Source: a virus | Lineage: Duplodnaviria > Caudoviricetes | IMG/VR virus record: IMGVR_UViG_3300032218_004357 | Coordinates: 8,080 to 72,079 of that record | Reading direction: 5' to 3' (one strand) | DNA: 64,000 nucleotides | Shown: positions 19,108-63,175 of the stretch, in pieces | Position numbering within the stretch: the first letter of the stretch is position 1 | Layout of the letters: the number at the start of each line of letters is the position of its first letter | The notes under the pieces: model-generated | Told to the model about the DNA's origin: nothing | Seen by the model: the letters and a program-made list of their open reading frames with translations, nothing else | Databases searched by the model: none | Translations under genes and position numbers: made by a program

Positions 19108-19283
19108 ACGAGTTGTCGCGCGATTCTCGCGTGATTTCTGCTGCACGGCTGTCGCAGGCGTTCCATACGAACCCATTAACCCTCATGGATTTGCCAGAGG
19201 ATCTCTGGTTGATTCTTCATGCTTGTGGTAATGTGGTTCAACGCGATCAAGAGGCTGCCCTGAAAAAATCGCAATCAGGGTAG
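19089..19283 (+). CDS. -1 frame extension of the tail chaperone (gpGT analogue)
   Basis: The -1 frame is open from GGACCCT (19086-19092) to TAG 19283 (...DELSRDSRVISAARLSQAFHTNPLTLMDLPEDLWLILHACGNVVQRDQEAALKKSQSG), with no clear RBS of its own. Confidence 0.65.
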   Translation, partial: PYQDAVDELSRDSRVISAARLSQAFHTNPLTLMDLPEDLWLILHACGNVVQRDQEAALKKSQSG

Positions 19284-19329
19284 CCTTGTCGTGTTGGATA
19301 GCGGTCTACCGGTTTGAGGGGTTTCTTCG

Positions 19330-47248: not shown

Positions 47249-47659
47249 ATGGCGGTAAACCCCACCACCAAGCGCGGACACTCCTCCCAACGAACCAACC
47301 CCACCAGCACAGACCGTCTTACGAAGACGGAACGCCTAGGGATGGTGAAAGAACCCGTAGAGGACAGAACACACCCCGAACATCCCTACACACCTCACCA
47401 GATCCTCTGGGACCGCTGGACCAACACCCACCACATTCCGATCCTCGAAATCCACTGGCTCGACGCCATCAGCACCGGAGACGACTGGATCACCGAACAC
47501 CACATCGACACCCGCCCAGCCCCCAGCATCGCCCTCGGCTACCTCACCGCCCAAACCGAACACACCATCACCATCACCGCACTCATCAACGAAGAACACT
47601 ACGCAAACGGCATCACCATCCCCAAAGGCTGCATCATCCACACCCGGACCATCAACTAA
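47249..47659 (+). CDS. Hypothetical protein
   Basis: GGAGG RBS before ATG 47249; C-terminal 'IHWLDA' and 'ITIPKGCI' resemble a common small phage family. Confidence 0.55.
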   Translation: MAVNPTTKRGHSSQRTNPTSTDRLTKTERLGMVKEPVEDRTHPEHPYTPHQILWDRWTNTHHIPILEIHWLDAISTGDDWITEHHIDTRPAPSIALGYLTAQTEHTITITALINEEHYANGITIPKGCIIHTRTIN

Positions 47660-47976
47660 TGCCCAACACAGACCACACCCCCAACACCGATACGCAAGCC
47701 AACAACTGGATGCAACACGCCAACTGCAAAAACCAAACCCACCACATGTTCCCCCAACACCACAAAGACGCCAACTACATCGAACACGCCCGACACCTCT
47801 GCAACAACTGCCCAGTCAACGAACCCTGCCTCAACTACGCCCTCGAATTCCCACCCGCCGACATGCACGGCGTCTGGGCAGGACTCACCCCCCGCCAGTT
47901 AGCAGCCGAACAACGAGCCCGCGGCATCCGAGCCATCCGACCGACCTTGGCCGCAATGTGGGGCGACAACCAGTAG
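47659..47976 (+). CDS. whiB: WhiB-family Fe-S transcription factor
   Basis: W..HANC...F...ARHLCNNCPV...CL.YAL.....GVWAGLT..Q: four Cys plus the G(V/I)W.G turn. Confidence 0.9.
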   Translation: MPNTDHTPNTDTQANNWMQHANCKNQTHHMFPQHHKDANYIEHARHLCNNCPVNEPCLNYALEFPPADMHGVWAGLTPRQLAAEQRARGIRAIRPTLAAMWGDNQ

Positions 47977-48443
47977 ACGACCTTGCGGCCGAAATGGAAG
48001 TGGCTCGCAAGGTGGCGATGGGTCAAGCGAAACGGTGGGGACTTTACGGGCATGCCCTTGACGATTTGTTGGGTGATGCGTATCTCGCTGCGGTGATCTT
48101 GTGTCGGGAGTGGGATTCCGGGAAGGGTGTGCCGAGGGTTGTGTATGTGGGGAAGTATTGCGAGCGGCGGACCATTGACCTTCATCGGGAACGGTACGGT
48201 CGGAAGCCGGGTCCTGTTGAGGTGCCGTTTGATGAGGAATGGGACTCGCCGGATGTGGGGGCGGAACTGTCTGAGTTTGCGGTGGTGATGGCTCGTATCC
48301 CTGAGGGCCGGGAACGGTATGTGGTGTGCCGGTTGTTGGAGGGGGCGTTTCAGCGTGAGATTGCTGTGGAGTTGGGAATCTCGAAGACCAGAGTGAGACA
48401 GTTGATTGAACGGGTCGGGAAGTGGTGTGAGGTGGAGTTCTGA
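47958..48443 (+). CDS. Sigma-70/ECF-like factor
   Basis: Region 2-like DDLLGDAYL...WD..KG and region 4 HTH QREIAVELGISKTRVRQL. True start may be 47994. Confidence 0.7.
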   Translation: MGRQPVDDLAAEMEVARKVAMGQAKRWGLYGHALDDLLGDAYLAAVILCREWDSGKGVPRVVYVGKYCERRTIDLHRERYGRKPGPVEVPFDEEWDSPDVGAELSEFAVVMARIPEGRERYVVCRLLEGAFQREIAVELGISKTRVRQLIERVGKWCEVEF

Positions 48444-48820: not shown

Positions 48821-49111
48821 GGCTTCTGGGGGGTCTGTGAGGCCCGGGCAGGTGCCGGTGGCTCCGCAGGGTGTGGTGAGCGGGGCGTCCGTCAGGTAGG
48901 CGTGTAGGGCGTCTGCGGGGCTGGCGAGGGGTGCTGCTGCGGGTGGCGGGGCTGGGATGCCGTCCTCGAGCCGGGCTTGGAGGCGGAGGGCGTTCGCTGC
49001 CCATGCGTTGAGGGAGAGTCCGGCGTTCTGGGCTGCGGTCTGAAGTTGTTCCTTCAGGTGGGCGGGAACTCGCAGGTAGACGACGGTTTCTCGGTCAGGG
49101 TTGGGCGGCAT
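48773..49111 (-). CDS. Ribbon-helix-helix (Arc/HicB-like) protein with C-terminal Cys cluster
   Basis: VYLRVPAHLKEQL..AA...GLSLNAW; C-terminal PCG..GTC and CHEC. Confidence 0.7.
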   Translation of the reverse strand: MPPNPDRETVVYLRVPAHLKEQLQTAAQNAGLSLNAWAANALRLQARLEDGIPAPPPAAAPLASPADALHAYLTDAPLTTPCGATGTCPGLTDPPEALHGLLWCHECGIRLG

Positions 49112-49283
49112 CTCGGGTGGCGAGCAGCGTGATGTAGTCGGCGATGCTCATGTCGTAGCCGTCGGCCATGTCGATCAAGAGGTTCTTGGTTTCGGCGGGG
49201 ACTCGGATGGTGATGGTCGTGTTCGTGCCGGTTTCGGCGCGGCGGGGCGGTCGGCCGGTGCGGCGGGCGATGTTGGTGAGCAT
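49095..49283 (-). CDS. Ribbon-helix-helix protein with GRP (AT-hook-like) N-terminus
   Basis: RRTGRPPR...ITIRVPAETK..L..MA..Y.MSIADYI. Confidence 0.7.
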   Translation of the reverse strand: MLTNIARRTGRPPRRAETGTNTTITIRVPAETKNLLIDMADGYDMSIADYITLLATRDAAQP

Positions 49284-49324
49284 GCGTGGATCGTACCCGA
49301 AAACTTGACTTGCTGTAAACCGAT

Positions 49325-49522
49325 GTGTACGATGCGCCCACTATGTGGGACTACTACCAAGCCCTCATCGACCACGAAGCCCGCCTCGAAGAATACGGGC
49401 GGCCACTCACCAACACCGAGGCCCTCGAACTATTCGAGGCGACCCGTGGCGTATTCGAACCAGACGACCCGCCCGTCTACTGGGAAGCCGCCGACCCCGA
49501 GGAGGAACACCCCCATGACTGA
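49325..49522 (+). CDS. Small acidic hypothetical protein
   Basis: 65-aa ORF overlapping the WhiB start. Confidence 0.5.
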   Translation: MYDAPTMWDYYQALIDHEARLEEYGRPLTNTEALELFEATRGVFEPDDPPVYWEAADPEEEHPHD

Positions 49523-49766
49523 AGCATGGCGCAACGACGCCGCCTGCCGCGGCCGAGACTCAAACGTCTGGTACCCCGACAACCGCATCGGCCTCCGAGA
49601 TGCCATGCGCATCTGCGCCGTCTGCACCGTCAAAGACGAATGCCTCGAGTTCGCCCTCGAAGCCGAAGAAATCCACGGTGTCTGGGGCGGCAAAACCGAA
49701 ACCGAACGCCGTCTCCTGCTCCGTCGACGTCGGAAGGATGCCCGGCGGCTTACCGTCGCGTCCTGA
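49515..49766 (+). CDS. whiB: WhiB-family Fe-S transcription factor (second copy)
   Basis: GGAGG RBS; W..DAAC.....WYP....A.RICAVC.V..ECL..AL...E.HGVWGG.TE.ER. Confidence 0.92.
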   Translation: MTEAWRNDAACRGRDSNVWYPDNRIGLRDAMRICAVCTVKDECLEFALEAEEIHGVWGGKTETERRLLLRRRRKDARRLTVAS

Positions 49767-50081
49767 TCACGGCTTCCGGTACGACAGTTTGTACCCACAA
49801 CGGTGGCAGAAATGCCCCCATTGATTGAATCGGATCTCGCTCTGGGGGTGCGTGCAGTCGAGGATCTCCGCCGCCCGCGCATCACAGAGTTGCCGGACGT
49901 ACTCGGCGAGACTGATCCCGAGACGTTCCGCCGTGTCCTTCCACCGTTGGTGACTTGACCGGGGAGCCCGGATCAACACCTGCTGGAGCGGATCTTCGTC
50001 CGTTGCGCCCGTCGAACGCCGCACCGTCGGTTTGATCGAATCGGCGACTTGCTGCATGGCGGCCTCGAGGTTGTCACTCAC
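49767..50081 (-). CDS. RHH-like protein with C-terminal Zn ribbon
   Basis: VLIRAP...HQRWK.TAE..GISLAEYVR; C.H...CHRC. Confidence 0.65.
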   Translation of the reverse strand: MSDNLEAAMQQVADSIKPTVRRSTGATDEDPLQQVLIRAPRSSHQRWKDTAERLGISLAEYVRQLCDARAAEILDCTHPQSEIRFNQWGHFCHRCGYKLSYRKP

Positions 50082-50719
50082 TCGACGATCTCCGCATCCC
50101 GAATGACCTCAATCCCCTGCTCGTCTTCCGGAATGTCCCGCACCGCACCCTCGATCTCGGGGACGTCCCGGCCCAACATGCCCATCACCGTATCCCGTGG
50201 GAGCACCCCGGACTGGCCCATCAGTTCCAAGAGTTGACGGGCTTCGGTCTCCGGATCGAACGCATCCGCCGCAGCGGCACCATCTGCACCAGCGAGCACG
50301 GCCCGTTGAGGGGCCTGCTCTCCGCTGTCGACAGCGACGTTGATGTTCACGGCTTCCATGCCGAGGAGTTTCGAACGCCGATCCATGATCGACAAGACCT
50401 GCTGAATTGCTCGGAGATCCGGTTCGATGACGAGTTCGCTGCCGTCCGGGGCTGTGACCTTCCGGTGCTGGGTGAGGGGCCAGATCGCCTGCTGGAGCGC
50501 GTCGAGGCGCTCCAGTTCGAGCCGGAGCACCTCCGGGTAGGCGAGGAGGGCTTCTCGGTTCAGGGACTGGAGTTGCCGGGTGACCGCGGCGTGGACGGCT
50601 CGCGTCGAGATACCGAACCGTTTGGCGATCTCCCCGGTCGGTACGCCGGTCTTGCGCATCTGGAAGATGCGGGCATCCCGCTCGGCGAGGAACTCTCTCG
50701 TGAGACCGTCGCTACTCAT
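50078..50719 (-). CDS. HTH protein, probable terminase small subunit
   Basis: N-terminal HTH, then LELERLDAL..AIW...D..AI..VL.IMDRRSKLLG, typical of actinophage TerS-like proteins. Confidence 0.6.
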   Translation of the reverse strand: MSSDGLTREFLAERDARIFQMRKTGVPTGEIAKRFGISTRAVHAAVTRQLQSLNREALLAYPEVLRLELERLDALQQAIWPLTQHRKVTAPDGSELVIEPDLRAIQQVLSIMDRRSKLLGMEAVNINVAVDSGEQAPQRAVLAGADGAAAADAFDPETEARQLLELMGQSGVLPRDTVMGMLGRDVPEIEGAVRDIPEDEQGIEVIRDAEIVE

Positions 50720-52448
50720 TGGACCCTTGCTTCGAGAACTCGATCACTTCGAACGGAAACAGCGTACTCCGTTTCATTCGAACCGGCCATTGGCGGAGGT
50801 CTCGAGGCCCACGCCACTGCTTCACCTCGTACACCGGGTCACCGACCGCCGTCGGATCTGGTGCCAGCGCGTACCCGAACTCCGGCCACCGCATCCACAC
50901 CGCCGAACCCATCGGCCGCAAGTCCCGGGCCGACAGCGAATTACCGAGCGGAGCGTGATGCTCGAGCCACAACGCACACCCGTAGGTGGTACGGATCTCG
51001 TCGAGGATCAACGCCACCTCGATCGCCGTTGCTTCAGCCGTCCGGTTCCCCGGATCAATGAACGCCTTGTAGAGGGGACCAAGCACCAACAGTTCCGGTT
51101 GAATCTTTTCGATCTGTTCCTCGAGGAGGAGCCGGTCCGTCGGCTTCAGCAAGTTGATACCGTCCGGCTTCACCCACAAGTGCGCTTCAGGATCCGCCGT
51201 CGACTCGTACGCACGATGCAACGCACCGAGGATCTTCCGTGACGTGCGCCGGATGATCCGTTCCGGGTTCTCGAGATCCACGAACAGGGTCTTCACCGGA
51301 CGCATCCGCCCGAGCGTGAACGGATGGACGCCAGCCCCGGACAGGATCGCAACCTGCCGAGCGAGCATCGTCTTGCCGACTCCCTCCGCCGCGACGATCA
51401 TCACCCGCTCCTGCCGCTCGAGCATCCCGGGGATCAACCAGTCATACCCGTCGTCCTCGGTTTCGTTGATGAGCGTCGTCCACCGCACCAACCGGCCCGG
51501 GTTCTTGACGACCGACGGGTCTCCGGCAGCAGCGAGCAACCCTCGAGCACGAGCGATTTTCGCGTCGACATCCAAATCCCGAGTTGCGAGTTCCTCGAGA
51601 GCGACCAGAACTTGACGAAACTCGTCAACTTCTTGCACGGTCTCCTCGAGCGGCACCTCGACCGACGCATCCAAATCAACGAGATCGCTGACCGTTCCCC
51701 CCACTCCGAGGAGATCAGCAATGTCTTTGTGCGGAGCCGGAGGAACTTTTACCCGATGTTCGATACCGATGGCCGTCAAACTTGCAGCGACCGCACGGGC
51801 GTGCCGCCATCCGGGTTCGTCGTTGTCGCCGACGACCACCACTCGAGCGCCACGCAACCATTCCGAGTATTGCGGCAACCACTTCGACTGGTTTGGGCCG
51901 CCCGCCCCGCCCGGGTTCGTCGTCGCGACATACCCGGCGCGCTCGAGCGCATGGACGTCTTTCTCGCCCTCGCAGACCACGACGACACCACCGGCAGCCG
52001 CTGTCGCGAGAATGTCCGGCAAACGGTAGAGCGGCTTCTCGAGGCCAGAAGTTTTCCAGTCCCAACCACCGCGACCATCCGGTTGCCGTTGCCGGAACGT
52101 CTTCTTTCCGTCGGCATCTCGATACCGGAGCACTTGGAATACGAGTCCACCGTCGGCATCGAGATACTCGTAGGTGTCCTCGAGGCGTCCGGGACCCACG
52201 ACCCGGGGCTCCTCGGGCGGCGGGAACAGGTCGTTGATCGTCAACCCGAGCGCATCACAGATTTGGCCCGTGTCGCACCCATCACCACGATGGCAATGAA
52301 TCAACGCACGACCGTCTGCTCCTTCACCAACCGACACCGACGGGTTGTTGTCGTCGGCACGACACGGACACGCCGCATCCCATTGGTTGCCGGTGCGACG
52401 AACCTTGTGGAGTCGTTTGAGGACGTTCTCAACCTGCGGGGACGACAT
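50712..52448 (-). CDS. Primase-helicase (Zn finger + TOPRIM + RecA-type/AAA_25 helicase)
   Basis: ACPC..DD.NPS...C..GC; VCEGEKD, GDNDEPG; AEGVGKT Walker A, LLVLGPL, EHH, GS..W motifs. Start at ATG 52448. Confidence 0.9.
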   Translation of the reverse strand: MSSPQVENVLKRLHKVRRTGNQWDAACPCRADDNNPSVSVGEGADGRALIHCHRGDGCDTGQICDALGLTINDLFPPPEEPRVVGPGRLEDTYEYLDADGGLVFQVLRYRDADGKKTFRQRQPDGRGGWDWKTSGLEKPLYRLPDILATAAAGGVVVVCEGEKDVHALERAGYVATTNPGGAGGPNQSKWLPQYSEWLRGARVVVVGDNDEPGWRHARAVAASLTAIGIEHRVKVPPAPHKDIADLLGVGGTVSDLVDLDASVEVPLEETVQEVDEFRQVLVALEELATRDLDVDAKIARARGLLAAAGDPSVVKNPGRLVRWTTLINETEDDGYDWLIPGMLERQERVMIVAAEGVGKTMLARQVAILSGAGVHPFTLGRMRPVKTLFVDLENPERIIRRTSRKILGALHRAYESTADPEAHLWVKPDGINLLKPTDRLLLEEQIEKIQPELLVLGPLYKAFIDPGNRTAEATAIEVALILDEIRTTYGCALWLEHHAPLGNSLSARDLRPMGSAVWMRWPEFGYALAPDPTAVGDPVYEVKQWRGPRDLRQWPVRMKRSTLFPFEVIEFSKQGSNE

Positions 52449-54148: not shown

Positions 54149-54672
54149 CCGGACCAGCCGAGTAGCGCCGCCTGCCGAACGGCGAGCGCTGCCGTTGCCT
54201 GCGCATCCGGGAGCGCTCGATGGGCGTTGGTGAGGGGGATGCCCCACGCTGCGCACGCATCGCCGAGCCGATGCCGACCCGGAGTCCGCCGGGAAGCCCG
54301 GTCTTGATCAAGCGTGTCGATCACTCCAGCGATCTCCAGCCGGATACCGATGCGTTCGAGGGCCGTTCGCAGGAACGGTACGTCAAAGCCGTTGGCGTTG
54401 TGACCGACGACGACCTGTCCTCGTAACCGTTGGGCGACTACTTGGCCGATGCTCTTCCACGAAGGAGCGAGAGCGGCTTCGATCGCGGTGATGCCGTGGA
54501 TCTTTGAGAGGGGATCCATCAGCAGCCCGCGTTCGTCGATGCGGATCGACCGGACCTTGCTCGTCCACTCGGACACGACGACACCGCCCTCGTTGATTTC
54601 TACGAGAGCGATGTCGACGATGTGGTTGGTTGCTGGATCGAAGCCGGTGGTTTCGATGTCGATGACGATCAT
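54133..54672 (-). CDS. DEDDh 3'-5' exonuclease (DnaQ-like)
   Basis: IDIETTG, IHGIT, VGHNA.GFD..FL, HRAL.DA. ATGA overlap at 54669-54672. Confidence 0.9.
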   Translation of the reverse strand: MIVIDIETTGFDPATNHIVDIALVEINEGGVVVSEWTSKVRSIRIDERGLLMDPLSKIHGITAIEAALAPSWKSIGQVVAQRLRGQVVVGHNANGFDVPFLRTALERIGIRLEIAGVIDTLDQDRASRRTPGRHRLGDACAAWGIPLTNAHRALPDAQATAALAVRQAALLGWSGYTSG

Positions 54673-55016
54673 CGGTCTGCCGGTTCTCGGATCTCGTAGC
54701 CGTTCTTCGTGAGGATCGCGACGATGGCGTCGAGCGTGTCGGCGTCCCACATCACGCCGTCGAGAATGGCGTGGATCTGATCCAGCGCCTTCGAGTGATC
54801 GACGGCGAGGCCGATCAAGTGTGCTCCGGCGTCCCACTCGGTCTCGTCGGCGCGACCGACCCAGACCTCGTTGGTGACGTCCCAGACGTCCTGACCGTCG
54901 TAGCCGACGGACACGTCGGCGTCGATGTACGGGGTGCCGGTGCTGAGGATCGTGTTGTCGTCGTCGAGGACCATCTCGACGACCACCGGGTAGTGGATCT
55001 GGATCGTGCGGCTCAC
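54669..55016 (-). CDS. Acidic hypothetical protein
   Basis: AGGAG RBS; GTGA overlap with the upstream gene. Confidence 0.65.
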   Translation of the reverse strand: MSRTIQIHYPVVVEMVLDDDNTILSTGTPYIDADVSVGYDGQDVWDVTNEVWVGRADETEWDAGAHLIGLAVDHSKALDQIHAILDGVMWDADTLDAIVAILTKNGYEIREPADR

Positions 55017-55642
55017 TTGGTCTCCTGTTCGGGGGTCTTGGGGTTGTCGAGGACGTGGACTTCGACGCAGCGGAGCGGTCGCTCGTTGTCGTCGAAGTCG
55101 CCACGCATCTGGTCCGACACCAGCCGAGCGACGCTCCGCTTGGTGAGGATTTCGGCGGCGTCGCCGCTGAGCGCGATCTTGATGATCCACTCGGTGCGCG
55201 GGGGGAGGATCAACTCGTTCAGCATCTCGAACGCCTCGTTGATCGCGTCGTCCAAGTCGTGGAACACGGAACCGAAGTCCTCGGAGTCGTCGGAGTCGAA
55301 CACCTCGAACCACGCGTTGTTGTCCCAGACGAGACGATCCTCGGCGTCGAGCAACTTCTCGTCGTCGGTGATGCCCGCAGCGATGAGGCCGTCGGAGTCC
55401 CAGACGATGATGGGCTCGTCGCCGTCTTCACGCGACGGTTCGTCGCTGGGCCAGACGGCGAGGCGCATCTCGCCGACGCAGCGCACGGCGAGGGTGCGTC
55501 CAGCGTCGTTGGTGAGGATGGCGACCGGGTTGACGTATCCGACGTAGAACGCGGCGTCCTGTCGAGTGACTCGGTCGTTGTCGGTGGTCAGGGTGATCCT
55601 GACGTTGTTGGGGTTGTTCTGTTCGGGGTGGATGGTTTCCAC
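55013..55642 (-). CDS. Acidic hypothetical protein (cassette A5)
   Basis: AAGGAG RBS inside the repeat unit. Confidence 0.7.
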   Translation of the reverse strand: METIHPEQNNPNNVRITLTTDNDRVTRQDAAFYVGYVNPVAILTNDAGRTLAVRCVGEMRLAVWPSDEPSREDGDEPIIVWDSDGLIAAGITDDEKLLDAEDRLVWDNNAWFEVFDSDDSEDFGSVFHDLDDAINEAFEMLNELILPPRTEWIIKIALSGDAAEILTKRSVARLVSDQMRGDFDDNERPLRCVEVHVLDNPKTPEQETK

Positions 55643-55660
55643 GGTGTCTCCTTAGTAGCG

Positions 55661-55718
55661 GGGGTTGATACTAGGTAGTGTAGCAGGGGGGTCGGACATA
55701 GTCCTCCCCCCCCCGCTG
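55661..55718 (-). repeat. Cassette-boundary repeat unit 1: hairpin + TGCTACACT extended -10
   Basis: GGGGTTGATACTAGGTAGTGTAGCAGGGGGGTCGGACATAGTCCTCCCCCCCCGCTGC. Confidence 0.9.
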
Positions 55719-55719
55719 C

Positions 55720-56064
55720 TCACTTGCCGGAGCGGATGTTGCCGTTGTCGTCGAACGTGTCGTTGTACGCGTTCTGGATCATCTCGCCACCTTCGCTGGC
55801 GAGGCATTCGCGAATGCCCTTGCGCCACTCCCAACTGTTGAGCATCGCTTCGACGTCAGCGTCGGTGACGTCACGTTCGACCTCATCGGCGGCGAACGCG
55901 TCGGTGATGTATTCGCGCACGCCTCCGGGGGTGAAGAACGCTCCGGTGAAGCCGCTGACGTTCATCAGTCGGGCGATGACCCACGCTGCGACGTCTTCGT
56001 CCATCTCGGGAAGGGTGGCGACGATCGCAGCGGCGATGTCGATGGGGTTCTGGTCGGTGCTCAT
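55720..56064 (-). CDS. Acidic hypothetical protein (cassette A4)
   Basis: Flanked by repeat units; AAGGAG RBS. Confidence 0.7.
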   Translation of the reverse strand: MSTDQNPIDIAAAIVATLPEMDEDVAAWVIARLMNVSGFTGAFFTPGGVREYITDAFAADEVERDVTDADVEAMLNSWEWRKGIRECLASEGGEMIQNAYNDTFDDNGNIRSGK

Positions 56065-56081
56065 CTGATGTCTCCTTGCTC

Positions 56082-56136
56082 GGGGTTGATACTAGGTAGG
56101 TTAGCAGGGGGGTCGGACATAGTCCTCCCCCCCTGC
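56082..56136 (-). repeat. Cassette-boundary repeat unit 2 (most regular hairpin)
   Basis: GCAGGGGGG-TC-GGAC-ATA-GTCC-TC-CCCCCCTGC at 56104-56136. Confidence 0.9.
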
Positions 56137-56139
56137 CGG

Positions 56140-56790
56140 TCACTCGGCGGTGAGGGCCGTGGCGAGGGCTTCCGTCACCTGCTTGTCGCAGAAGTCGGCG
56201 GCGTCCTCGACGGCGTCGCTGTAGTCCGACCACCACTCCTGCTGGGCGTCGTCGTCGGTGTCCGGGGACGGCCGGTCGGCCACCCCCTTCGTGGCGGCGT
56301 AGGCGTCGAGTGCCTTGTCGCTGAACTCGTTCTCGGCGACGATCCGGCCGTCGGCGACTGCGGCCGCTCCGACGTAGCACCAGCCCTCATCGACGTATCG
56401 GAGGGTGACGGCGATGCCGAGCATCTCCGACATCTTGCGGTAGCCCTCGACGACGGGGGACCACGCGCTGTTGTTGCGGATCGTGATGGACGGTCGCACG
56501 GCGTTGCGGTCGTCGTTGACGAGCCACACGTCGTAGTCGCCCCACTTCGATCCCCAGAGGGCGACGGCGGCGGCGTAGCCGTCGATCCCGCCGTCCTGTC
56601 CGTTGGCGAAGACCGAGTATTCGTACGGCTCGCCGTCGGGGGTAACGCCGGTTCGCTTGATGGTCGCTTCGCTGGGGAGGGGCAGGAAGTGGTCGAGGAT
56701 GGACTTCTCGTCGGCGGCGAGGGCGGCGATCTGGTCGAGCACCTCGATCGGGCCGATGATGGTGGTGATGGTTTCGACGTGGTTCGGCAT
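56140..56790 (-). CDS. YubB/DUF1281-like ferredoxin-fold protein (cassette A3)
   Basis: MPNH start, F..LP.P, WGSKW, NSAWSP, LS/MS...Y.DEG...G pattern of the DUF1281/Api92 family. Confidence 0.6.
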   Translation of the reverse strand: MPNHVETITTIIGPIEVLDQIAALAADEKSILDHFLPLPSEATIKRTGVTPDGEPYEYSVFANGQDGGIDGYAAAVALWGSKWGDYDVWLVNDDRNAVRPSITIRNNSAWSPVVEGYRKMSEMLGIAVTLRYVDEGWCYVGAAAVADGRIVAENEFSDKALDAYAATKGVADRPSPDTDDDAQQEWWSDYSDAVEDAADFCDKQVTEALATALTAE

Positions 56791-56810
56791 TTCGGGTTGT
56801 CTCCTGTTCG

Positions 56811-56866
56811 GGGGTTGATACTAGGTAGTGTAGCAGGGGGGTCGGACATAGTCCTCCCCCCGCTGC
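56811..56866 (-). repeat. Cassette-boundary repeat unit 3
   Basis: Near-identical to unit 1. Confidence 0.9.
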
Positions 56867-57373
56867 TCACTCGGTCGCGGCCAGCGCCTCCCTCACGATC
56901 TGTCGGGCGGCGTCGGCGAGCGCGTCGGCGTAGACCTCGGCGATGGTGCGGAGGACCATCAGCATCTCGTCGACGATGCCTCCCGGACCCTCGAACGTCG
57001 TGTCGGTCTCCCACTCCCAGCCCGAGACCTCGGCGAACGTCCGGGTGATGTCCTCGAAGAACTGAATCCGACCGACGCTGTCGATCGCGACGTCGATGAG
57101 GAAGTCCTCGATGTCGTCGTGGTCCGGGCCGAAGCCGGGGTCGTCGGCGAGGCCGAGCCACGCGGCTGCCGGGTCGTCGGTGGCGGCGAGCCGCTCGGTG
57201 AAGACCTCGACGATGTGGCGGAAGAACTGCGCCGAGGCGGGTCCGGCGTCGGCGATCGGCCGGTCGCCGACCTTGTAGCCGTACAGGGACTCGTAGAGGG
57301 CAGGGTCTGCGATGACGCCGGACCTGTTGCGCAGTAGGACGGCGAGGCCGGTGGGGTCGATGGTCGTGCTCAT
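56867..57373 (-). CDS. Acidic hypothetical protein (cassette A2)
   Basis: Flanked by repeat units; AAGGAG RBS. Confidence 0.7.
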   Translation of the reverse strand: MSTTIDPTGLAVLLRNRSGVIADPALYESLYGYKVGDRPIADAGPASAQFFRHIVEVFTERLAATDDPAAAWLGLADDPGFGPDHDDIEDFLIDVAIDSVGRIQFFEDITRTFAEVSGWEWETDTTFEGPGGIVDEMLMVLRTIAEVYADALADAARQIVREALAATE

Positions 57374-57390
57374 CTGGTTTCTCCTTGCTC

Positions 57391-57445
57391 GGGGGTTGAT
57401 GCTTGTAGGTTAGCAGGGGGGTCGGACATCATCCTCCCCCCCTGC
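57391..57445 (-). repeat. Cassette-boundary repeat unit 4
   Basis: GCAGGGGGG-TC-GGA-CATCA-TCC-TC-CCCCCCTGC: loop changed, stem kept. Confidence 0.88.
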
Positions 57446-57449
57446 CGAG

Positions 57450-57950
57450 TCAGCCGATCAACTCGCGCACGGCGGCGGTGGCGATGCTGTTCTGCGCCTT
57501 CAGCGCGGCGATCAGCACCTCGACCTCCTCGCGATCCAGACGGATCGTGAAGCCGTTCTGGTAGGGATTCCGACCGACGTAGTAGGGCTCGACGTCGATG
57601 TCGGCGCACGCCTTCAGCACGGCGAGCAACTCGTCGCGGTTCTTGTCGAACCACTCCCCGTACTCCCGCTCGGCTGCTCGACGCGCTTCCGCTGCGGCCT
57701 CCGCCGCTTCCTGCTCGGCGGTGTAGGCCGTCCACTCGGCGTACACGCCGCGAGTGCGGATCGACACGGTGATCGGCTCGTCCTCGGGGAGGCCGGTGTT
57801 CCGATCGACCTGCTGGACGGCGACCCGCCCGTTAGAGGCCGGAGCGACGATGATGCCGCGCTTGAGCCAGCCGATGTGCCAGTGGGTTTCGGGGTTGCCG
57901 TACGCCGCGTACGCGACCTCCATCCCGACGGTGATGTCCTGTGCCTTCAT
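57450..57950 (-). CDS. Hypothetical protein (cassette A1)
   Basis: AAGGAG RBS before ATG 57950. Confidence 0.68.
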   Translation of the reverse strand: MKAQDITVGMEVAYAAYGNPETHWHIGWLKRGIIVAPASNGRVAVQQVDRNTGLPEDEPITVSIRTRGVYAEWTAYTAEQEAAEAAAEARRAAEREYGEWFDKNRDELLAVLKACADIDVEPYYVGRNPYQNGFTIRLDREEVEVLIAALKAQNSIATAAVRELIG

Positions 57951-57967
57951 CTGGGGTCTCCTTGATT

Positions 57968-58134
57968 GGGGGTTGATGCTAGATAGTGTAACACAGGGGT
58001 CGGACATCGTATTCCCGACTCCCCGGATTTCTTGGTGCTGCTCGATGGGATCTAGTGTAGCACAGGGGTCGGACATCCTCTATGCCCTGCCCCTCGTTTC
58101 CTGATGCCAACCACATTAGCAGGGGGGTCGGACA
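57968..58134 (-). repeat. Cluster of three half-units (GGGGTCGGACA core, no hairpin arm) heading array A
   Basis: Motif copies span ~57988-58006, 58057-58075 and 58117-58134. Confidence 0.85.
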
Positions 58135-58184
58135 ACCTCCAGCACCAGCAGGTCCTCCAGCCCCAGCAGGGCGGCCCTCTTCCT

Positions 58185-58232
58185 CGACATCGACATCGAC
58201 ATCGACATCGACATCGACATCGACATCGACAT
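58185..58232. repeat. (CGACAT)8 perfect tandem hexamer repeat
   Basis: Seen directly in sequence. Confidence 0.95.
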
Positions 58233-58437
58233 CGTGCGCGCGCGCACGCACGCGTACGCACGGGGCTCCCACCCCTCCGGCTCCCCACCCTCAGCCCCGC
58301 CCCCACCCCCGGACGAACCCCCAGCCCCGGTCCCCAGAAGAAGCCCCAAAAGCCCCGCCCCAAAGCCACCACCCCGGGGCTCCAGCCGCCTACACTCCTT
58401 CACCGATCAAGTGGACACTTACACAGATGGGATTTCC

Positions 58438-58851
58438 GTGAACCACGGTGAAGTCACCCGCAGTTTCAACACGAGGTGGGACCACCACTACGCAGCCCTC
58501 CTTCAGTTCGTCGCTCGAGAAGGAACCGCCCACGTCGTCGCCAGCCATCGAGAAGAGTTCGAGGGTGTGATCGTCCCGCTCGGCACATGGACCGCCACCC
58601 AGCGCCAGCGGAAGCGACGCGGGTTCCTGCCGCCCGGGCGCGCAGCGCTCCTCGAGGAGTTGCCCGGCTGGCAATGGGGACCTCTCGCTCCCGGTCCGGC
58701 TGCTGAAACAGACCGGAACACGGAGATCCAACGGCTTCGGGCGGAAGGCGTGACCCTCGCCAAGATCGCTGAGCAGTTCGGCATCACTCGTCAGCGCGTT
58801 CATCAGATCGCTCCCCGACGTCCGGTCAAGGTCGAAACCCCCGATGCGTGA
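58438..58851 (+). CDS. Helicase-associated (HA) domain + C-terminal HTH protein
   Basis: W...Y..L..F..REG...V.......LG.W...QR.....G.L...R...LE.LPGW.W is HA-like; TLAKIAEQFGITRQRVHQI is an HTH. Confidence 0.78.
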   Translation: MNHGEVTRSFNTRWDHHYAALLQFVAREGTAHVVASHREEFEGVIVPLGTWTATQRQRKRRGFLPPGRAALLEELPGWQWGPLAPGPAAETDRNTEIQRLRAEGVTLAKIAEQFGITRQRVHQIAPRRPVKVETPDA

Positions 58852-59095
58852 GGAGCGTTCTCCGTGGTTCGGGATCCTGCTCGGGCTGGTGATGCTCTCG
58901 GTCTGGTTCGGCTGGGTCGTCATGCTCGTTGTCGGAAACCTGTACCACGATGGCTGCGTGACGAAACCCCTTGGGTTCTGGGAGGCCCAGCACTACGGGA
59001 TGCTGCTCGCCCTGCTCATCGGCTTGCCGTACGCCGCGCTGATCGTTGCGACAGTTGCGGATGGACACGCGACGAGGGGGCCGGACTCGTATTGA
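58844..59095 (+). CDS. Small two-TM membrane protein
   Basis: 83 aa with two hydrophobic helices. Confidence 0.6.
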   Translation: MREERSPWFGILLGLVMLSVWFGWVVMLVVGNLYHDGCVTKPLGFWEAQHYGMLLALLIGLPYAALIVATVADGHATRGPDSY

Positions 59096-59162
59096 GTCCA
59101 GCCCCCTCGGGGGTTCGCGCGACTGCCGGAGGAGGAGACAGAACCTCCGGCAGCGGCAGCGA

Positions 59163-60641
59163 TCAGACGGGCGGGTTGGTGCCCATGATGGACCGCCACG
59201 ACCCCTTCCAATAGGAGGGGATCCAGCGGGTGGGCTTCCGACCCTTGCCCAACGTGTGGAGAACCTCGACGCCCTTGCCGACGTCGGGGGTGACGATCAC
59301 CCGGTGTTCCAGCACCTTCCGGAAGCAGTCCAGCCCCATCTGGTCGGTGTAACCCTGACCCGGGCCGTGGACTGCGCCGTCGGTGATCCAGACGACCGGA
59401 GCCTTCGGGTGCTGCCGCTGAGCGACCGCCCACTCCAACGCCGGACGGTCGACCCCGTTGCCGGGCACCCGGCTGGGGAGGACGTCGACCATGCGGCCCT
59501 TGTCAGCGAGGACGAACACGTTCGGCGTGTTCTTGTCCCCGTTCGACGAGTAGACCGCAACGGTCGCACCCGGAGCCGCTTCGACGAGCCGCATGATGTC
59601 CTGCTGCGTGAACCGCATGGACCCGGACCCGTCGATGAGGACGACGCCGCCGTTGCCGCGCTTCGTCGCATCGAAGACACGACGCTGCGGATCGACGAGC
59701 ATCCGGTGGATGCGACGCGGGTGGCGTCCCCGGTCGGCGGGCCGCTTCTTGCGACCCATGCCGCCCGGAGCGAGCCGCGGCATGGCGCAGCGCTCCACGC
59801 GAAGCGTGTCCCACTTGCCGCCGTTCTTGCGCATCGGCTTGATCTTCTTGATCGCGTCGGCGTCGACCTTCGGCTTCTTGCCCTGCTTCTGGCTCGGCTT
59901 CCGACCCGGCTTGCCGTCCTGCGGCTCGCCGTCCTGCGCCTGACCCTCGGCATCGCCGTTGTCCTGCGCCTCGTCGTTCTCGTCCTCGTCGTCCTGCGGC
60001 GGGTTTGCGATCTGGTCGAGCAGGATCGCCCACTCTTCGGTGTATGCGAACCCGGCCGGAGCGAGACCGTGACGCGACAGGGTTGTCGCGCCCAGCCGTG
60101 CCGTCGGCACGCGTCGGACGAGGGCAGCGAGCCGGGTGGCGAGCGCACGGAACGCGTTCGCCCACTCGGGGTTGTGCTTGCGGACGCCGCTGATGAACGG
60201 CTTGAGCCGTGCGGTACCGGCGAACGCAGCGGTCATGTAGACGCCCTCCGACCAGAGGCCGCTCTGGGCGACCTGCTCGCCGGTCTGCTTCTCGGACCCG
60301 TCGGTCAAGTGGTTCTTGACGTCGAAGCCCGAACGGGCGCAGAGGGTGTTGACGCGGAACTCTTCCGCGACCTCTAGCGCTCGCTGCGTGGCGAAGCCGC
60401 GCTCGATCCACGTCGGCCACTCTTCACCGGGCGAACACTTCGCGTGCATCATTTCGTGCGCGCGAACCATCCGCTCCTGATCGTTGTCCCCGACGGGGAC
60501 GTCCATCCGGTGGCCGACGACGTACGTCCGGGCCCGGCCGGGCTCCATCGGTACGGGCTGGATCTCCCAGCGGCCGTTGTCCTTATCGGCACGCCCGAGC
60601 AAGTCGGGCATGGGGGCGACGATCTTCCGGACGGCGGTCAT
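59163..60641 (-). CDS. Zincin-like (HEMMH) + vWA (MIDAS) protein, partner of a MoxR ATPase
   Basis: VRAHEMMH and downstream EEFRVN; acidic linker; VLIDGSGSM and WITDG MIDAS motifs. Start at ATG 60641. Confidence 0.78.
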   Translation of the reverse strand: MTAVRKIVAPMPDLLGRADKDNGRWEIQPVPMEPGRARTYVVGHRMDVPVGDNDQERMVRAHEMMHAKCSPGEEWPTWIERGFATQRALEVAEEFRVNTLCARSGFDVKNHLTDGSEKQTGEQVAQSGLWSEGVYMTAAFAGTARLKPFISGVRKHNPEWANAFRALATRLAALVRRVPTARLGATTLSRHGLAPAGFAYTEEWAILLDQIANPPQDDEDENDEAQDNGDAEGQAQDGEPQDGKPGRKPSQKQGKKPKVDADAIKKIKPMRKNGGKWDTLRVERCAMPRLAPGGMGRKKRPADRGRHPRRIHRMLVDPQRRVFDATKRGNGGVVLIDGSGSMRFTQQDIMRLVEAAPGATVAVYSSNGDKNTPNVFVLADKGRMVDVLPSRVPGNGVDRPALEWAVAQRQHPKAPVVWITDGAVHGPGQGYTDQMGLDCFRKVLEHRVIVTPDVGKGVEVLHTLGKGRKPTRWIPSYWKGSWRSIMGTNPPV

Positions 60642-61369
60642 CAGACTGCCACCCGGTCGATCGCGATCGCGTCCAGCACCGACTCGGCACGGTTGCCGAA
60701 CACGATGCGGGCCGCGCGTGCCTCGTCGCCCAGCCGCTGGCGCAGCGAGTCGAAGGCGTAGAACGTGCGGAGGCTGATCCGACGGTCGCCCAAGTCCGCA
60801 GCGCGTGCGGCGTAGGACCGCAAGTCTGCCGACAGGAGGGCGAGGGCCGACGGGTGCGGCGTGTTGATGCGGACCTGTACCGGGAAGCGGTCGATGAGCG
60901 CCTCCGGCAAGTCCTCCATCCGCTCGACGTTGGTCGTCATCACGACGCTGAAGCCGTCGCGGGGACGCTCGATGCGGCCGGTCGCCGGGTTCTCCCAGCG
61001 GGCCGACTCGGGCGAGTCGGTCATGGCGAGGAGGAGGGCGAACACGTCGCCGCTGGCCTTGTCGACCTCGTCGACGATGAGCCGACCTCCGGTGAGGCCG
61101 TCGCCGCGCCAAGCCTTCGAGGCCTGACCGTCGAGCCACTCCCAGCGGCCGTCGGCGGCGGGCATCCAGCAGCCGGTGACGTCTGCCGACGTCATGTCTT
61201 CGGTGCAGACGAGCCGGAACGCTCCGGCGTCGACGTTGCCGAACGTCAGCCCGGCGTACGTCTTGCCGGTGCCCGGCGGGCCGTACAGGAGGACGCGGTC
61301 GACTCCGGCGACGAGGATGTCCTCGACGTCTTGCCAGCACTCGGGCATGGCGAGGGGGTGGTTGTTCAT
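60641..61369 (-). CDS. MoxR/CbbQ-type AAA+ ATPase (AAA_5)
   Basis: LLYGPPGTGKT, LIVDEVDK, VMTTN, EALIDRF. Confidence 0.88.
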   Translation of the reverse strand: MNNHPLAMPECWQDVEDILVAGVDRVLLYGPPGTGKTYAGLTFGNVDAGAFRLVCTEDMTSADVTGCWMPAADGRWEWLDGQASKAWRGDGLTGGRLIVDEVDKASGDVFALLLAMTDSPESARWENPATGRIERPRDGFSVVMTTNVERMEDLPEALIDRFPVQVRINTPHPSALALLSADLRSYAARAADLGDRRISLRTFYAFDSLRQRLGDEARAARIVFGNRAESVLDAIAIDRVAV

Positions 61370-61431
61370 GGTGCTGTCTCCTAGCGGGTTCGGTAGTAGG
61401 TAGGGGGAACGGTCGTTCACCCGATGACTCT

Positions 61432-61460
61432 AGTGTAGCACACCCAGCGCCGCTTGTCAA
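61432..61460 (-). promoter_or_regulatory. Near-consensus sigmaA promoter TTGACA-17-TACACT (with TGn) for the AAA/vWA pair
   Basis: TGTCAA at 61455-61460 and AGTGTA at 61432-61437 on the + strand. Confidence 0.8.
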
Positions 61461-61539
61461 GTCGGGCGGGGAAGTTTCTCGGGTGGGCCGACCGCCACGC
61501 GCAGGAGGATCGCGTGGTCGGTCAGCCGCACCCGACCCG

Positions 61540-61971
61540 TCACCGCTTCGCGGTCTTGGGCATGGTGATGACGAGCGCCCGCTTCTTGTCGGTCGTCGTC
61601 GTCACCGCGGCCACCGTGGCGGCGTCGATGAGGCCGATCTCGACGGCGGCGTCGAACTTCGCCAAGTCGATGACCGACCGGGTGACCCGGTCCAGCGTGG
61701 CGGCGGGGACGCGCTCGGCGAGGGCGTCGAAGTCGATCGCCCGGGCCTCCTCGCCGTCCAGCCCGCCCTTGAGCGTGACCTTCGTGCCGTCGGGGAGGGT
61801 GACGGTCTCCACCTCGGCGGTGAGCATGGCCGCGATGGCCTGCGCCTCCGCCTCGGTGAACATCTTCGTCGCGTCGGCCTTGGCGATCTTGGCCTGTACG
61901 GCGACCGCGGCGGCGACGTTGACGTTGACGGCGGTCTCGGTAGCGGTGGGGATGGGGGTCGTCGGGTTCAT
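61540..61971 (-). CDS. Hypothetical protein (cassette B3)
   Basis: AAAGG RBS before ATG 61971. Confidence 0.65.
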   Translation of the reverse strand: MNPTTPIPTATETAVNVNVAAAVAVQAKIAKADATKMFTEAEAQAIAAMLTAEVETVTLPDGTKVTLKGGLDGEEARAIDFDALAERVPAATLDRVTRSVIDLAKFDAAVEIGLIDAATVAAVTTTTDKKRALVITMPKTAKR

Positions 61972-62004
61972 GGGGTTGCCTTTCGGTTGGGGGTGCTTGC
62001 TTGA

Positions 62005-62034
62005 TGTAGGTAGTATAGCAGGGGGGTCGGACAA
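62005..62034 (-). repeat. Repeat unit 8 (core + extended -10, no hairpin arm)
   Basis: TAGTATAGCAGGGGGGTCGGACA; -10 TATACT on the minus strand. Confidence 0.85.
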
Positions 62035-62036
62035 GG

Positions 62037-62378
62037 TCACGTCGCGTCGGCCCACGGCGTACCGTCGGCCAGCGCGGCGTACTTCGCCGGGAACTCGAAC
62101 CGGGGGAGCATCCCAGCGACCTTCGCCACGGCGTCCTCGTCCCCGTCGTTCAGGGCGAGGATCGCCAGCATGGCCTCGTCGTTGATGTGCTGACCCTCTA
62201 GGGCGAGCCAGACCTCCACGGCGTCCCCGAAGCGCTTCTTCGGGATCAGCGCCATGACGCGCTGGCCGCTGCGGGCCTCGTACCCGAACGCGACGTCCCC
62301 GAGGGATTCGCCGGTCGGACCGTCGGCGGGCATGATGCCGAGGACGGCGATCTTTACGGTGTCGGTGGTCGTGCTCAC
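62037..62378 (-). CDS. Hypothetical protein (cassette B2)
   Basis: AGGAG RBS; flanked by repeat units. Confidence 0.65.
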   Translation of the reverse strand: MSTTTDTVKIAVLGIMPADGPTGESLGDVAFGYEARSGQRVMALIPKKRFGDAVEVWLALEGQHINDEAMLAILALNDGDEDAVAKVAGMLPRFEFPAKYAALADGTPWADAT

Positions 62379-62419
62379 GATGGTGTCTCCTGCGTTAGTA
62401 GGCGGTGGGGCTGATGGAA

Positions 62420-62459
62420 GGTAGTGTAGCAGGGGGGTCGGACAACATCCCCCCCCTGC
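62420..62459 (-). repeat. Cassette-boundary repeat unit 9 (hairpin with a 2-nt bulge)
   Basis: GCAGGGGGG-TC-GGA-CAACA-TCC-CCCCCCTGC. Confidence 0.88.
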
Positions 62460-62460
62460 C

Positions 62461-62727
62461 TCACTCGTCGTAGGACAGGGCGTCCAAGTGGTCGCGAGCC
62501 AGAACCTCCAAGAACCGGCCGACCTTCTGGACGTCGTTGGCGAGGCTGACGATGTCGTCCAGCCCCATCACCGCGCCGACATGGACATCGGCGAAGTGGG
62601 TGAGCAGGACGTCCACGATGTTGAGCGAGTCCTGATCGCCACGGAAGTGGCGGTTGGAGTCGGCCTTCGTGCGGGCGTCCGTGAAGAACGCGGTGACCTC
62701 GGGGGCGATGTCGGTGGGGGTGGTCAT
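62461..62727 (-). CDS. Small acidic hypothetical protein (cassette B1)
   Basis: AGGAG RBS before ATG 62727. Confidence 0.65.
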   Translation of the reverse strand: MTTPTDIAPEVTAFFTDARTKADSNRHFRGDQDSLNIVDVLLTHFADVHVGAVMGLDDIVSLANDVQKVGRFLEVLARDHLDALSYDE

Positions 62728-62756
62728 GGTGTCTCCTGCCTGTCGTTCGTTCATGT

Positions 62757-62898
62757 AGGTAGTGTAGCAGGGGGGTCGGACAAGGTCCACGGTCCCCCGA
62801 TCTGCTCGGTGGCAACGAGTGTAACAACGGGGTCGGACAACGTATTCCCGAATCCCGAAACTTCTTGACGAGAAACACCATAGCAGGGGGGTCGGACA
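62757..62898 (-). repeat. Cluster of three units heading array B
   Basis: Motif copies span 62765-62782, 62821-62839 and 62881-62898. Confidence 0.85.
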
Positions 62899-63175
62899 CG
62901 CTCCCAGCCCCATGACGAAACGTCATGCCAGACAATACGTCCAGCCGACCTCGACGCCACCCTCGACTCCTCCCTCGGCGAGCAGCAGCGACCGTTAGCG
63001 TAACTGCTAACACGCCGCCGAGCCCCGCTAGACCGCCCCCGATCTCCGAGCCCCGCAGCGCCAGCGAGGAGCCCGGGGCTCTCGCTCCTCCCCTGACCCA
63101 CGGGCAGCCCCGGGGTGGGACCGCCTTCGGCGGGGCCCCCAGCGCTCGGGGGAGCGGAGAGAGGAGGGGGGGGAA

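Follow-up and report, generated by a model that had tools for sequence, protein, structure and literature searches.

Promoter-like units with the geometry of PafBC promoters separate single-gene cassettes in an uncultured actinophage

The window analysed here is a stretch of 64,000 nucleotides from a virus of the Caudoviricetes, taken from a 72-kb IMG/VR contig (IMGVR_UViG_3300032218_004357, hereafter G000). Towards its end lie two arrays of small genes separated by copies of a short repeat, GGGGTCGGACA, which are the subject of this work. The repeat occurs as 12 exact copies, all on the plus strand between 55,688 and 62,898, and the array genes are coded on the opposite, minus strand. The count stays at 12 when one mismatch is allowed and was reached in none of 100 shuffles, which bears out the 12 co-oriented copies claimed in a preliminary description of this DNA. 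Our results suggest that each copy is the core of a 22-nt unit that very probably works as a promoter, that this unit has the geometry of the actinobacterial promoters activated by PafBC, and that whole one-gene cassettes are gained, lost and moved between the units.

Gene arrays and repeat units at the locus

Read on the minus strand, all copies align as TGTCCGACCCC-NN-TG(C/T)-TANNNT, and GGGGTCGGACA is the core of a unit made of TGTC(C/A)G, 10 nt and TANNNT. The −10 hexamers in the window are TACACT (six times), TAACCT (twice), TATACT, TATGGT and TAATGT, followed either by a leader of ~30–45 nt with AGGAG and a start codon or by an ATG at 6 nt. The preliminary description, in which the repeat continued as TGC-TANNNT, a spacer and a Shine–Dalgarno (SD) sequence, is accurate for the leadered units; the TG is in fact followed by C or T, and some units have their ATG 6 nt after the hexamer. 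The single start it assigned to three cassettes proved to be two sequences, ATGAGCAC in two of them and GTGAGCAC in the third. Both arrays have the layout first reported, i.e. a ~450-bp non-coding region with three tandem copies spaced by 57–69 bp (the head), then single genes with one unit between neighbours (gA1 to gA5 with four between-gene units in array A, gB1 to gB3 with two in array B). Nearly all of these genes are ORFans. Searches of deposited phages with megablast and blastn gave no DNA match to the region or to single units, no Rfam family matches the units, and a literature search with the motif sequence returned unrelated primers only.

Following transcription on the minus strand, array B opens with head promoters at 62877..62898 (TGTCCG-N10-TATGGT) and 62818..62839 (TGTCCG-N10-TACACT), both recognized from the exact repeat and the unit alignment, and a third at 62761..62782. 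An ATG in frame with gB1 lies 6 nt past the hexamer of the third one (position 62754), and the ORFan gB1 (62461..62727, 88 aa) may have a leaderless start there, which would extend it to 97 aa. A between-gene unit (62423..62444) with a hairpin at 62428–62460 (−25 kcal/mol, z −3.5) precedes gB2 (62037..62378, a 113-aa ORFan with a GTG start). The next unit (62012..62033) is devoid of hairpin, has a −35-like GTGACC hexamer at 17 bp and precedes gB3 (61540..61971, a 143-aa ORFan). Between the two arrays, a promoter of a second class, canonical and without the repeat (TTGACA-17-TGC-TACACT, 61432..61460, minus strand), precedes an AAA_5 ATPase operon (60641–61369, 59163–60641 and 58390–58923).

The head of array A carries promoters at 58113..58134, 58054..58075 and 57985..58006 (all minus strand, from the exact repeat and the unit alignment), ~50 nt downstream of a perfect (TCGACA)x8.5 tandem repeat at 58184..58234 (TGTCGA on the coding strand). 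Upstream of the triple heads, the non-coding regions (58233–58400 and 62930–63175) are G-rich on the coding strand. Beside the tandem repeat of head A lies an alternating GC/GT tract; a comparison with positions 1–100 of the related contig L246 showed that this tract is kept there and the hexamer repeat is not. The first gene, gA1 (57450..57950, a 166-aa ORFan), has a 48% identical homolog in L246, and the protein collection holds no homolog of it besides gA1 itself. It is followed by a unit at 57407..57428 (hairpin 57412–57446, −29 kcal/mol, z −4.3), gA2 (56867..57373, a 168-aa ORFan), a unit at 56827..56848 (hairpin 56832–56867, −27 kcal/mol, z −4.8) and gA3 (56140..56790), whose 216-aa product has a DUF1281_C/Api92-like ferredoxin-like domain. 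A unit at 56098..56119 (hairpin 56103–56137, −31 kcal/mol, z −5.2) precedes gA4 (55720..56064), a 114-aa ORFan found at another place in the related contigs L156 and L157 and missing from the array A of L246. The last unit, at 55677..55698 (hairpin 55682–55717, −28 kcal/mol, z −4.1), precedes gA5 (55013..55642, 209 aa), the last gene with a unit of its own; the gene that overlaps it (54669–55016) has no promoter. Genes and between-gene units are all on the minus strand.

The two arrays are part of a larger system, which the window edge cuts off. The window ends with its contig (position 64000), and the first 2.1 kb of the stretch L155 (1–2109) have 99.6% identity to the end of a second contig, G001 (7–2116). 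G001 (IMGVR_UViG_3300032218_004264) is 43.5 kb long, and a third contig, G002, is identical to it. In the probable source sample, units of the G001 type occur at the same depth as the window. From this end overlap and the equal depth, we conclude that G000 and G001 are pieces of one genome of ~119 kb. The exact gA4 protein is on record on an ENA scaffold of 119,211 bp, on which this genome stands intact with ~32 co-oriented units. CheckV completeness was 49% and 29% for the two contigs, implying a larger genome. In the Logan contigs of the source run, each unit is a breaking point, and these repeats account for the broken assemblies of such phages and for the deposition of one genome as two contigs. 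In the joined region, 31–32 co-oriented units are found in ~22 kb with ~40 small genes, and three divergent units lie nearby. About half of the genes have a unit of their own and the others form short operons. The view that each gene has its own promoter/terminator unit holds, as far as promoters are concerned, for the arrays in the window and for roughly half of the genes in the joined region. No paralogs were found among the ~43 small genes of the region, and there is thus no sign of internal cassette duplication.

Distribution of the units and their promoter geometry

A scan of IMG/VR with the composite motif TGTC-NN-ACCCC-NN-TG-N-TANNNT retrieved at least 120 stretches, most of them of 34–44% GC (range 34–65%) and from contigs of ~100 kb. 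At least two co-oriented copies were present in 32 of the 80 stretches checked, and the reversed motif gave no match. Extending the search to the full contig and to related contigs, as had been proposed, gave two outcomes: no copy in the rest of the 72-kb contig, and the motif in G001, in these stretches and in G003, a 94.6-kb contig of 42% GC with 22 units on one strand at 41.0–52.7 kb. The units are limited to one region per genome. WhiB genes are present in this phage and in G003 and indicate the host phylum. Among cultured phages, those of Arthrobacter come closest, at ~31% amino acid identity; in the nearest of them, BruhMoment, TGTC-N12-TANNNT was not found on the coding strand over 36 kb. 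Relatives of a 492-aa gene (~40% identity, 55–59% GC) are also without the motif, so this gene is not linked to it, and a scan of viral contigs with its protein gave no match.

Some neighbouring genes deserve mention. The WhiB genes and a sigma factor candidate lie at 47659–47976, 47958–48443 and 49101–49766 of the window, all on the plus strand. The candidate, an ECF-like protein of 161 aa (region 4, E = 7e-5; region 2, E = 2e-3), overlaps the first WhiB gene and has no homolog in deposited phages. No T7-like RNA polymerase (PF00940) was found, although the control for this search was equally without a match. Close homologs of the phage WhiB (55–65% identity) occur on short contigs (L159–L163), none with the box, as we call the part of the unit upstream of the −10 region. 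These contigs carry metagenome-assembled-genome labels of Pseudomonadota, Thiobacillus, Verrucomicrobiales and Pirellula and are probably mis-binned phage contigs, which is what a WhiB-based scan for host genomes mostly returned. A DUF932 protein, with 32% identity between this phage and the low-GC clade, adjoins the arrays in both. Inside the low-GC arrays, no gene is better conserved than that of a GP88-family protein, which is also a neighbour of the gA3 homolog in the contig L244. The DUF932/GP88 array genes were located at L018 2970–3968 (G001 18970–19968), G003 51046–52062, L015 6881–7633 and L244 6628–7503.

The promoter role proposed earlier for the units is supported by their geometry. 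Among 296 distinct units, the spacing between box and hexamer is identical in 295, and an open reading frame (ORF) starts within 120 nt in 93% of them. Distances to the start form a bimodal distribution that peaks sharply at 6–7 nt and broadly at 22–40 nt, as in leaderless and leadered genes. To avoid circularity, we also anchored the search on ACCC-N6-TANNNT alone and then looked for TGTC; it occupied −28 to −25 in 31 of 32 units of this phage and 22 of 23 of G003. Variation in the box is confined to positions 5, 6 and 11. The hexamer is mostly TATAAT in G003, with CTAAAA at the −35 position, and TACACT-like in this phage with TGn ahead; the extended −10 TG is found in 30 of 34 units of the phage, and GAC is partly conserved at its −35 position.

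Leaderless mRNAs, which are common in Actinobacteria, have this geometry, with an ATG 6–7 nt past TANNNT. It independently places the presumed transcription start ~7 nt after the hexamer, and the units of this type predict leaderless mRNAs. ATG codons exactly 6 nt past the −10 were seen at 62754 (minus strand) in the window, at 1287, 4146, 8065 and 8226 in G001, and at 44134, 44442 and 45785 in G003. Both genomes also contain, elsewhere, canonical TTGAC-N17-TGnTAnnnT promoters without the box, and the coexistence of these with the box units defines two promoter classes. Judging from these regularities in the DNA, each repeat unit is very probably a promoter. It would be read by an RNA polymerase of the sigma-A type, with TGTCCG at −28 to −23, ACCCC at −22 to −18, TGn as extended −10 and TANNNT as −10.

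Resemblance to the PafBC −26 element and host recA promoters

The invariant core is more than a hairpin arm: it has the geometry of a known actinobacterial promoter element, which the preliminary description had missed. The consensus of PafBC promoters is the 22-nt tGTCgg(N10)tA(N3)T, whose 5′ part at −23 to −28 is the −26 element (Muller et al. 2021, PMC8635444). These promoters, also named RecA-NDp, have a canonical SigA −10 and no −35. Across Actinobacteria they strictly conserve a GTC triplet, which the helix-turn-helix (HTH) of PafB reads, and PafBC sits between sigma-A region 4 and the DNA, a mechanism called sigma adaptation (PMC8635444). PafBC is activated by single-stranded DNA (ssDNA) (PMC11804915). 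The phage units share the bipartite 22-nt geometry, the GTC at −27 to −25 and the SigA −10. Their −35 may also be called weak or absent, although GAC is partly conserved there in this phage and five of its units have a full TTGAC. TGTC-N12-TANNNT is in the PafBC register in 12 of 12 units of the window and in 295 of 296 of the clade, and the GTC is invariant among the phage units. They differ in sitting ahead of ORFans at 20–35 per genome rather than ahead of repair genes, in adding the extended −10 TG, and in the near-invariant ACCCC, which among host promoters is limited to a subclass. Canonical complexes have their DNA bent at −18 to −23, and with PafBC it is straight (PMC8635444); the stiff C-tract of ACCCC at −22 to −18 might favour this straight path.

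The host side was investigated in the 300 nt upstream of recA in 70 actinobacterial genomes from across the phylum (the unpublished genomes G005, G022 and G052 being excluded). TGTC-N12-TANNNT was found there in 35 of the 70 genomes, against 0 of 90 and 2 of 40 control regions. All 35 were among the 55 genomes with WYL-domain proteins, and none among the 15 without (Fisher p = 9e-6). ACC occupies positions 7–9 in 8 of the 35 host motifs (0.67 expected) and ACCCC positions 7–11 in three of them (0.07 expected). One of these three recA promoters carries TGTCAGACCCC, which is the consensus of the low-GC phages, and the two others carry TGTCCGACCCG and TGTCGGACCCG. In four of five host genomes searched, strict box promoters were present, nine in total (reversed control, 0), ahead of recA, dnaB, ftsK, an XRE regulator and small genes; all five genomes have tandem or fused WYL pairs. 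The box is, from its sequence and position, somewhat more probably a homologue of the −26 element than a chance look-alike. No WYL protein was found in the phage, so the reader would be the PafBC of the host; that host PafBC does read the box is a tentative proposal, which we rate a little lower than the homology itself. No paper was found that links PafBC or RecA-NDp motifs to phage promoters.

The 15 WYL-less genomes (G006, G009, G017, G023, G032, G038, G046, G053, G054, G060, G062, G068, G075, G077 and G083), most of them of 1.3–1.8 Mb, are all without the recA motif as well, which suggests that the PafBC pathway was lost in streamlined lineages. At low-GC host recA loci, no motif was recovered even under a relaxed pattern. 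One genome of 34% GC (G024) has both the WYL proteins and the recA motif.

Hairpins, probable cassette turnover and the possible reader of the box

In five of the six between-gene units, the repeat is part of a hairpin (GCAG-G6-A-GGAC-UAU-GUCC-GA-C6-CUGC, −25 to −31 kcal/mol, z −3.5 to −5.2) that begins 2–3 nt past the stop codon and finishes at the −10, and whose descending arm is the box plus TGC. Neither the six head copies nor the unit at 62033 nor the low-GC clade has it. The hairpin is thus something added to the promoter and not its core, and the preliminary designation of a 12-copy hairpin element is not tenable. Between genes, a G-run and GGAC would have been added upstream of the unit, with the result that box and TGC form the descending arm of a 35-nt hairpin. 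No T-run was found after the hairpins, and a scan with the consensus terminator found none at the units. The terminator role suggested previously fits in so far as a hairpin closes the upstream gene at these five units; the missing U-tract speaks against a canonical intrinsic terminator. By analogy with the PeSL units of T4-type phages, the hairpin may attenuate or terminate read-through, or stabilize the 3′ end of the upstream mRNA.

The relatives of this phage differ by whole one-gene cassettes, in line with the modular, recombination-shuffled locus that had been postulated. Upstream of array B, L156 and L157 (86–88% nucleotide identity) are collinear with the phage studied here, except that a gA4 homolog and a box unit are inserted between an 83-aa and a 92-aa gene, ~8 kb from the place of gA4 in this phage. 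The same gaaggagacg-cc-ATG leader stands on both flanks of the insert, and a contig from another run (X3) has the same join. L246 (70–75% nucleotide identity) is the equivalent of array A, with its triple head and one unit ahead of each gene, in the order of a new 56-aa gene, gA1-like, a new 127-aa gene, gA2-like, gA3-like, gA5-like and the next gene; gA4 is absent and the 127-aa insertion is flanked by a duplicated unit. The gA5 homolog of L246 (2863–3635) is split into ORFs of 59 and 198 aa. In L244, a more distant relative, the gA3 homolog is found on the opposite side of the AAA_5 ATPase pair, which is itself conserved. Breakpoints at the repeats, which the preliminary description had anticipated, are thus seen for the insertions bounded by units, with one junction at SD/ATG instead.

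The distant relatives L244 (in all spacers), L245 and L158, of 63–67% GC, alternate one gene with a ~85-nt repeat that is a different unit. It consists of a perfect hairpin, e.g. CCCGGGATCC-CCAC-GGATCCCGGG or CCCCCGACCC-GAAA-GGGTCGGGGG+TTT, then TTAGGGGTCGTG(T/C), and has neither TANNNT nor the TGTC-N12 register.

Since the units are repeated, they would insert, delete and move one-gene cassettes by homologous recombination, the whole ~75–100-bp unit (stop, hairpin, promoter, leader, SD and ATG) acting as substrate. The Rad52-like annealase noted earlier is indeed present (window ~4786–5148) and could help recombination from unit to unit. As stated before for the window, no cassette-specific recombinase was detected; searches for tyrosine and serine recombinases (PF00589, PF00239) found none in G000 and G001 (~97% of the 119-kb genome) or in G003. 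Cassette flux between the units is likely in view of these contigs, and homologous recombination is its probable mechanism by analogy with other phages.

Combining these elements, our best explanation, which we favour by a modest margin of confidence, is that of PafBC-type promoters with a hairpin add-on and cassette recombination. A clade of uncultured freshwater actinophages (34–65% GC, ~100–120 kb) would drive a region of small ORFans of the early type from 20–35 such promoters, whose boxes may possibly have been copied from the host. The promoters would be fired or boosted by host PafBC, and the added extended −10 would give them basal strength. In this scheme, it is conceivable that the DNA-damage alarm of the host, triggered by ssDNA, switches on the takeover or anti-defence genes of the phage, the unit serving also as recombination linker.

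Several observations weigh against this explanation. The extended −10 TG is carried by 30 of 34 phage units vs 0 of 35 host recA promoters, and five phage units have a full TTGAC −35; both make a basal, PafBC-independent activity likely. ACCCC is absent from the published PafBC motif (PMC8635444). In the sample, the small (1.3–1.8 Mb) low-GC actinobacterial genomes, of the kind that probably hosts the low-GC phages of the clade, have neither WYL proteins nor the recA motif. Without a U-tract, the hairpins are not canonical intrinsic terminators. As for cassette flux, it rests on a handful of metagenomic contigs, the SD/ATG junction mentioned above is not at the box, and breakpoints in the low-GC clade fall within 60 bp of units in 9.6% of cases vs 4.1% expected, a weak enrichment from non-independent pairs with few units per locus.

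The box could instead be read by a protein of the phage, either an activator that takes over the −35 contact, as in the MotA/AsiA middle promoters of T4, or a shut-off repressor with its operator in the spacer of strong early promoters, the likeness to PafBC being convergent or coincidental. We consider this less likely, yet it remains a serious rival in view of the low-GC genomes without WYL proteins. It would account for a box kept in phages of 34–65% GC, for an ACCCC and an extended −10 that exceed the host motif, and for box promoters confined to one region with the box-less class elsewhere, which fits a temporal switch. Candidate regulators are also at hand, since the phage has the two WhiB proteins and the small ECF-like sigma candidate, and in G003 a canonical promoter precedes a gene for a 71-aa GerE/sigma-4-like HTH protein just upstream of the array. 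This HTH, the one candidate common to both genomes, weakly matches the N-terminal HTH of a 213-aa protein of the window (50078–50719; E = 0.02), which has no PDB relative and whose single-sequence structure model is uninformative, being confident only in the HTH. However, among the proteins that this phage and G003 have in common, none is an obvious DNA-binding reader: those shared are DUF932, head-region genes and GP88, and the conserved array genes DUF932 and GP88 do not belong to DNA-binding families. The phage is devoid of WYL protein. It is also difficult to see mere chance behind a register that is identical, a GTC that never varies and an 11-mer shared with a host recA promoter.

Titration is a further possibility, in which the boxes act as a sponge that draws host PafBC away from its DNA-repair regulon and the promoters fire through their extended −10. 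The high copy number, multiplied by replication, the frequent extended −10 that host PafBC promoters lack, and the tandem TGTCGA x8 array upstream of one head go in this direction. A pure decoy would need neither one exact distance between every box and its −10 nor a position ahead of a gene, and the tandem repeat is not kept in L246, so that we regard a sponge as improbable. Stoperator-type immunity sites of a temperate phage, asymmetric repressor sites that block elongation as in mycobacteriophage L5, are more improbable still: the site is asymmetric, in a single orientation and at or near stop codons, but the units are confined to one region and always have a correctly spaced −10 and a downstream gene, no stop codon adjoins the head copies, and no integrase was found in G000, G001 or G003. 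Sites of the L5 type are spread through both arms of the genome and have no −10 of their own, so that the confined region, the fixed −10 distance and the missing integrase all count against this reading. The least probable reading, close to dismissal, is the integron-like site-specific system put forward at first, with the hairpins as attC-like sites. Single-gene cassettes bounded by an imperfect hairpin with unpaired bases, and their presence, absence and relocation in relatives, recall such a system. It is largely refuted by the lack of tyrosine or serine recombinase in G000, G001 and G003, by a promoter in every cassette in place of a common Pc, by junctions at varied points of the unit, including SD–ATG, as expected for homologous recombination, and by the absence of the hairpin from the heads, one between-gene unit and the low-GC clade.

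Promoter function and cassette turnover are well supported in silico, and PafBC dependence is put forward as a specific, testable and unpublished hypothesis. If it is true, this would be the first case found of phage promoters built on the actinobacterial sigma-adaptation element; a DNA-damage activator of the host would be exploited as a phage gene switch, and sigma adaptation would extend beyond repair genes. Independently of PafBC, recombination-linker cassettes like those of T4-type phages would have arisen in an unrelated phage lineage and host phylum, which supports a general route to ORFan turnover. Besides, the 22-nt unit offers a compact and portable candidate promoter for actinobacteria.

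Known systems resemble these arrays in different respects. Integron cassettes share the one-gene cassettes between imperfect hairpin-forming repeats, and differ from the arrays, which have a promoter per cassette and variable junctions; no IntI-type tyrosine recombinase was found in G000, G001 or G003, and the cassettes are not promoterless units read from a common Pc. T4 middle promoters (MotA box plus sigma-70 −10, called sigma appropriation) are mentioned as an adaptor-read box with a host −10 in PMC8635444. Like the phage units, they retain the −10 of the host, and in place of the −35 an adaptor recognizes a box specific to the class; in this phage, the adaptor may come from the host. The centre of the MotA box is near −30. 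No MotA or AsiA homologue was seen here, none having been looked for specifically.

The closest parallel is found in the PeSLs (promoter-early stem-loops) of T4-type phages (Arbiol et al. 2010, PMC2839356; Comeau et al. 2014, PMC4122927). These composite units extend from stop to ATG and combine a strong early promoter with a polyG/polyC stem-loop that overlaps the −10 or lies between it and the −35. They flank ORFans in a hyperplastic region, where relatives differ by one-gene indels and crossovers map between −10/SD and ATG. Their authors also compare them with integron cassettes (PMC2839356, PMC4122927). Our units have in common with them a probable strong sigma-70-type early promoter, a stem-loop of G-run and C-run, the SD, the start codon, and ORFan neighbours with unit-bounded indels. 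The repeated stop/promoter/SD/ATG unit is present here, as are units flanking ORFans with indels bounded by them; the stem-loop over the promoter is found in five of the six between-gene units and not in heads or the low-GC clade. The novelty once claimed for this architecture is therefore limited to this phage group, the same one having been published as PeSLs (PMC2839356, PMC4122927). In contrast to these, the arrays belong to an actinophage with WhiB and not to a T4-type myovirus, lineage and host phylum being unrelated, and the core is a box of the −26-element type instead of a −35/−10 with an AT-rich upstream region. Demonstrated promoter and terminator activity and circular excision products are among the marks of PeSLs, and the promoter activity of the present units is predicted. 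The resemblance is an analogy, not shared ancestry. What would be new with respect to PeSLs is a promoter core that is identical to the −26 element of PafBC promoters and is kept throughout a broad clade of uncultured actinophages.

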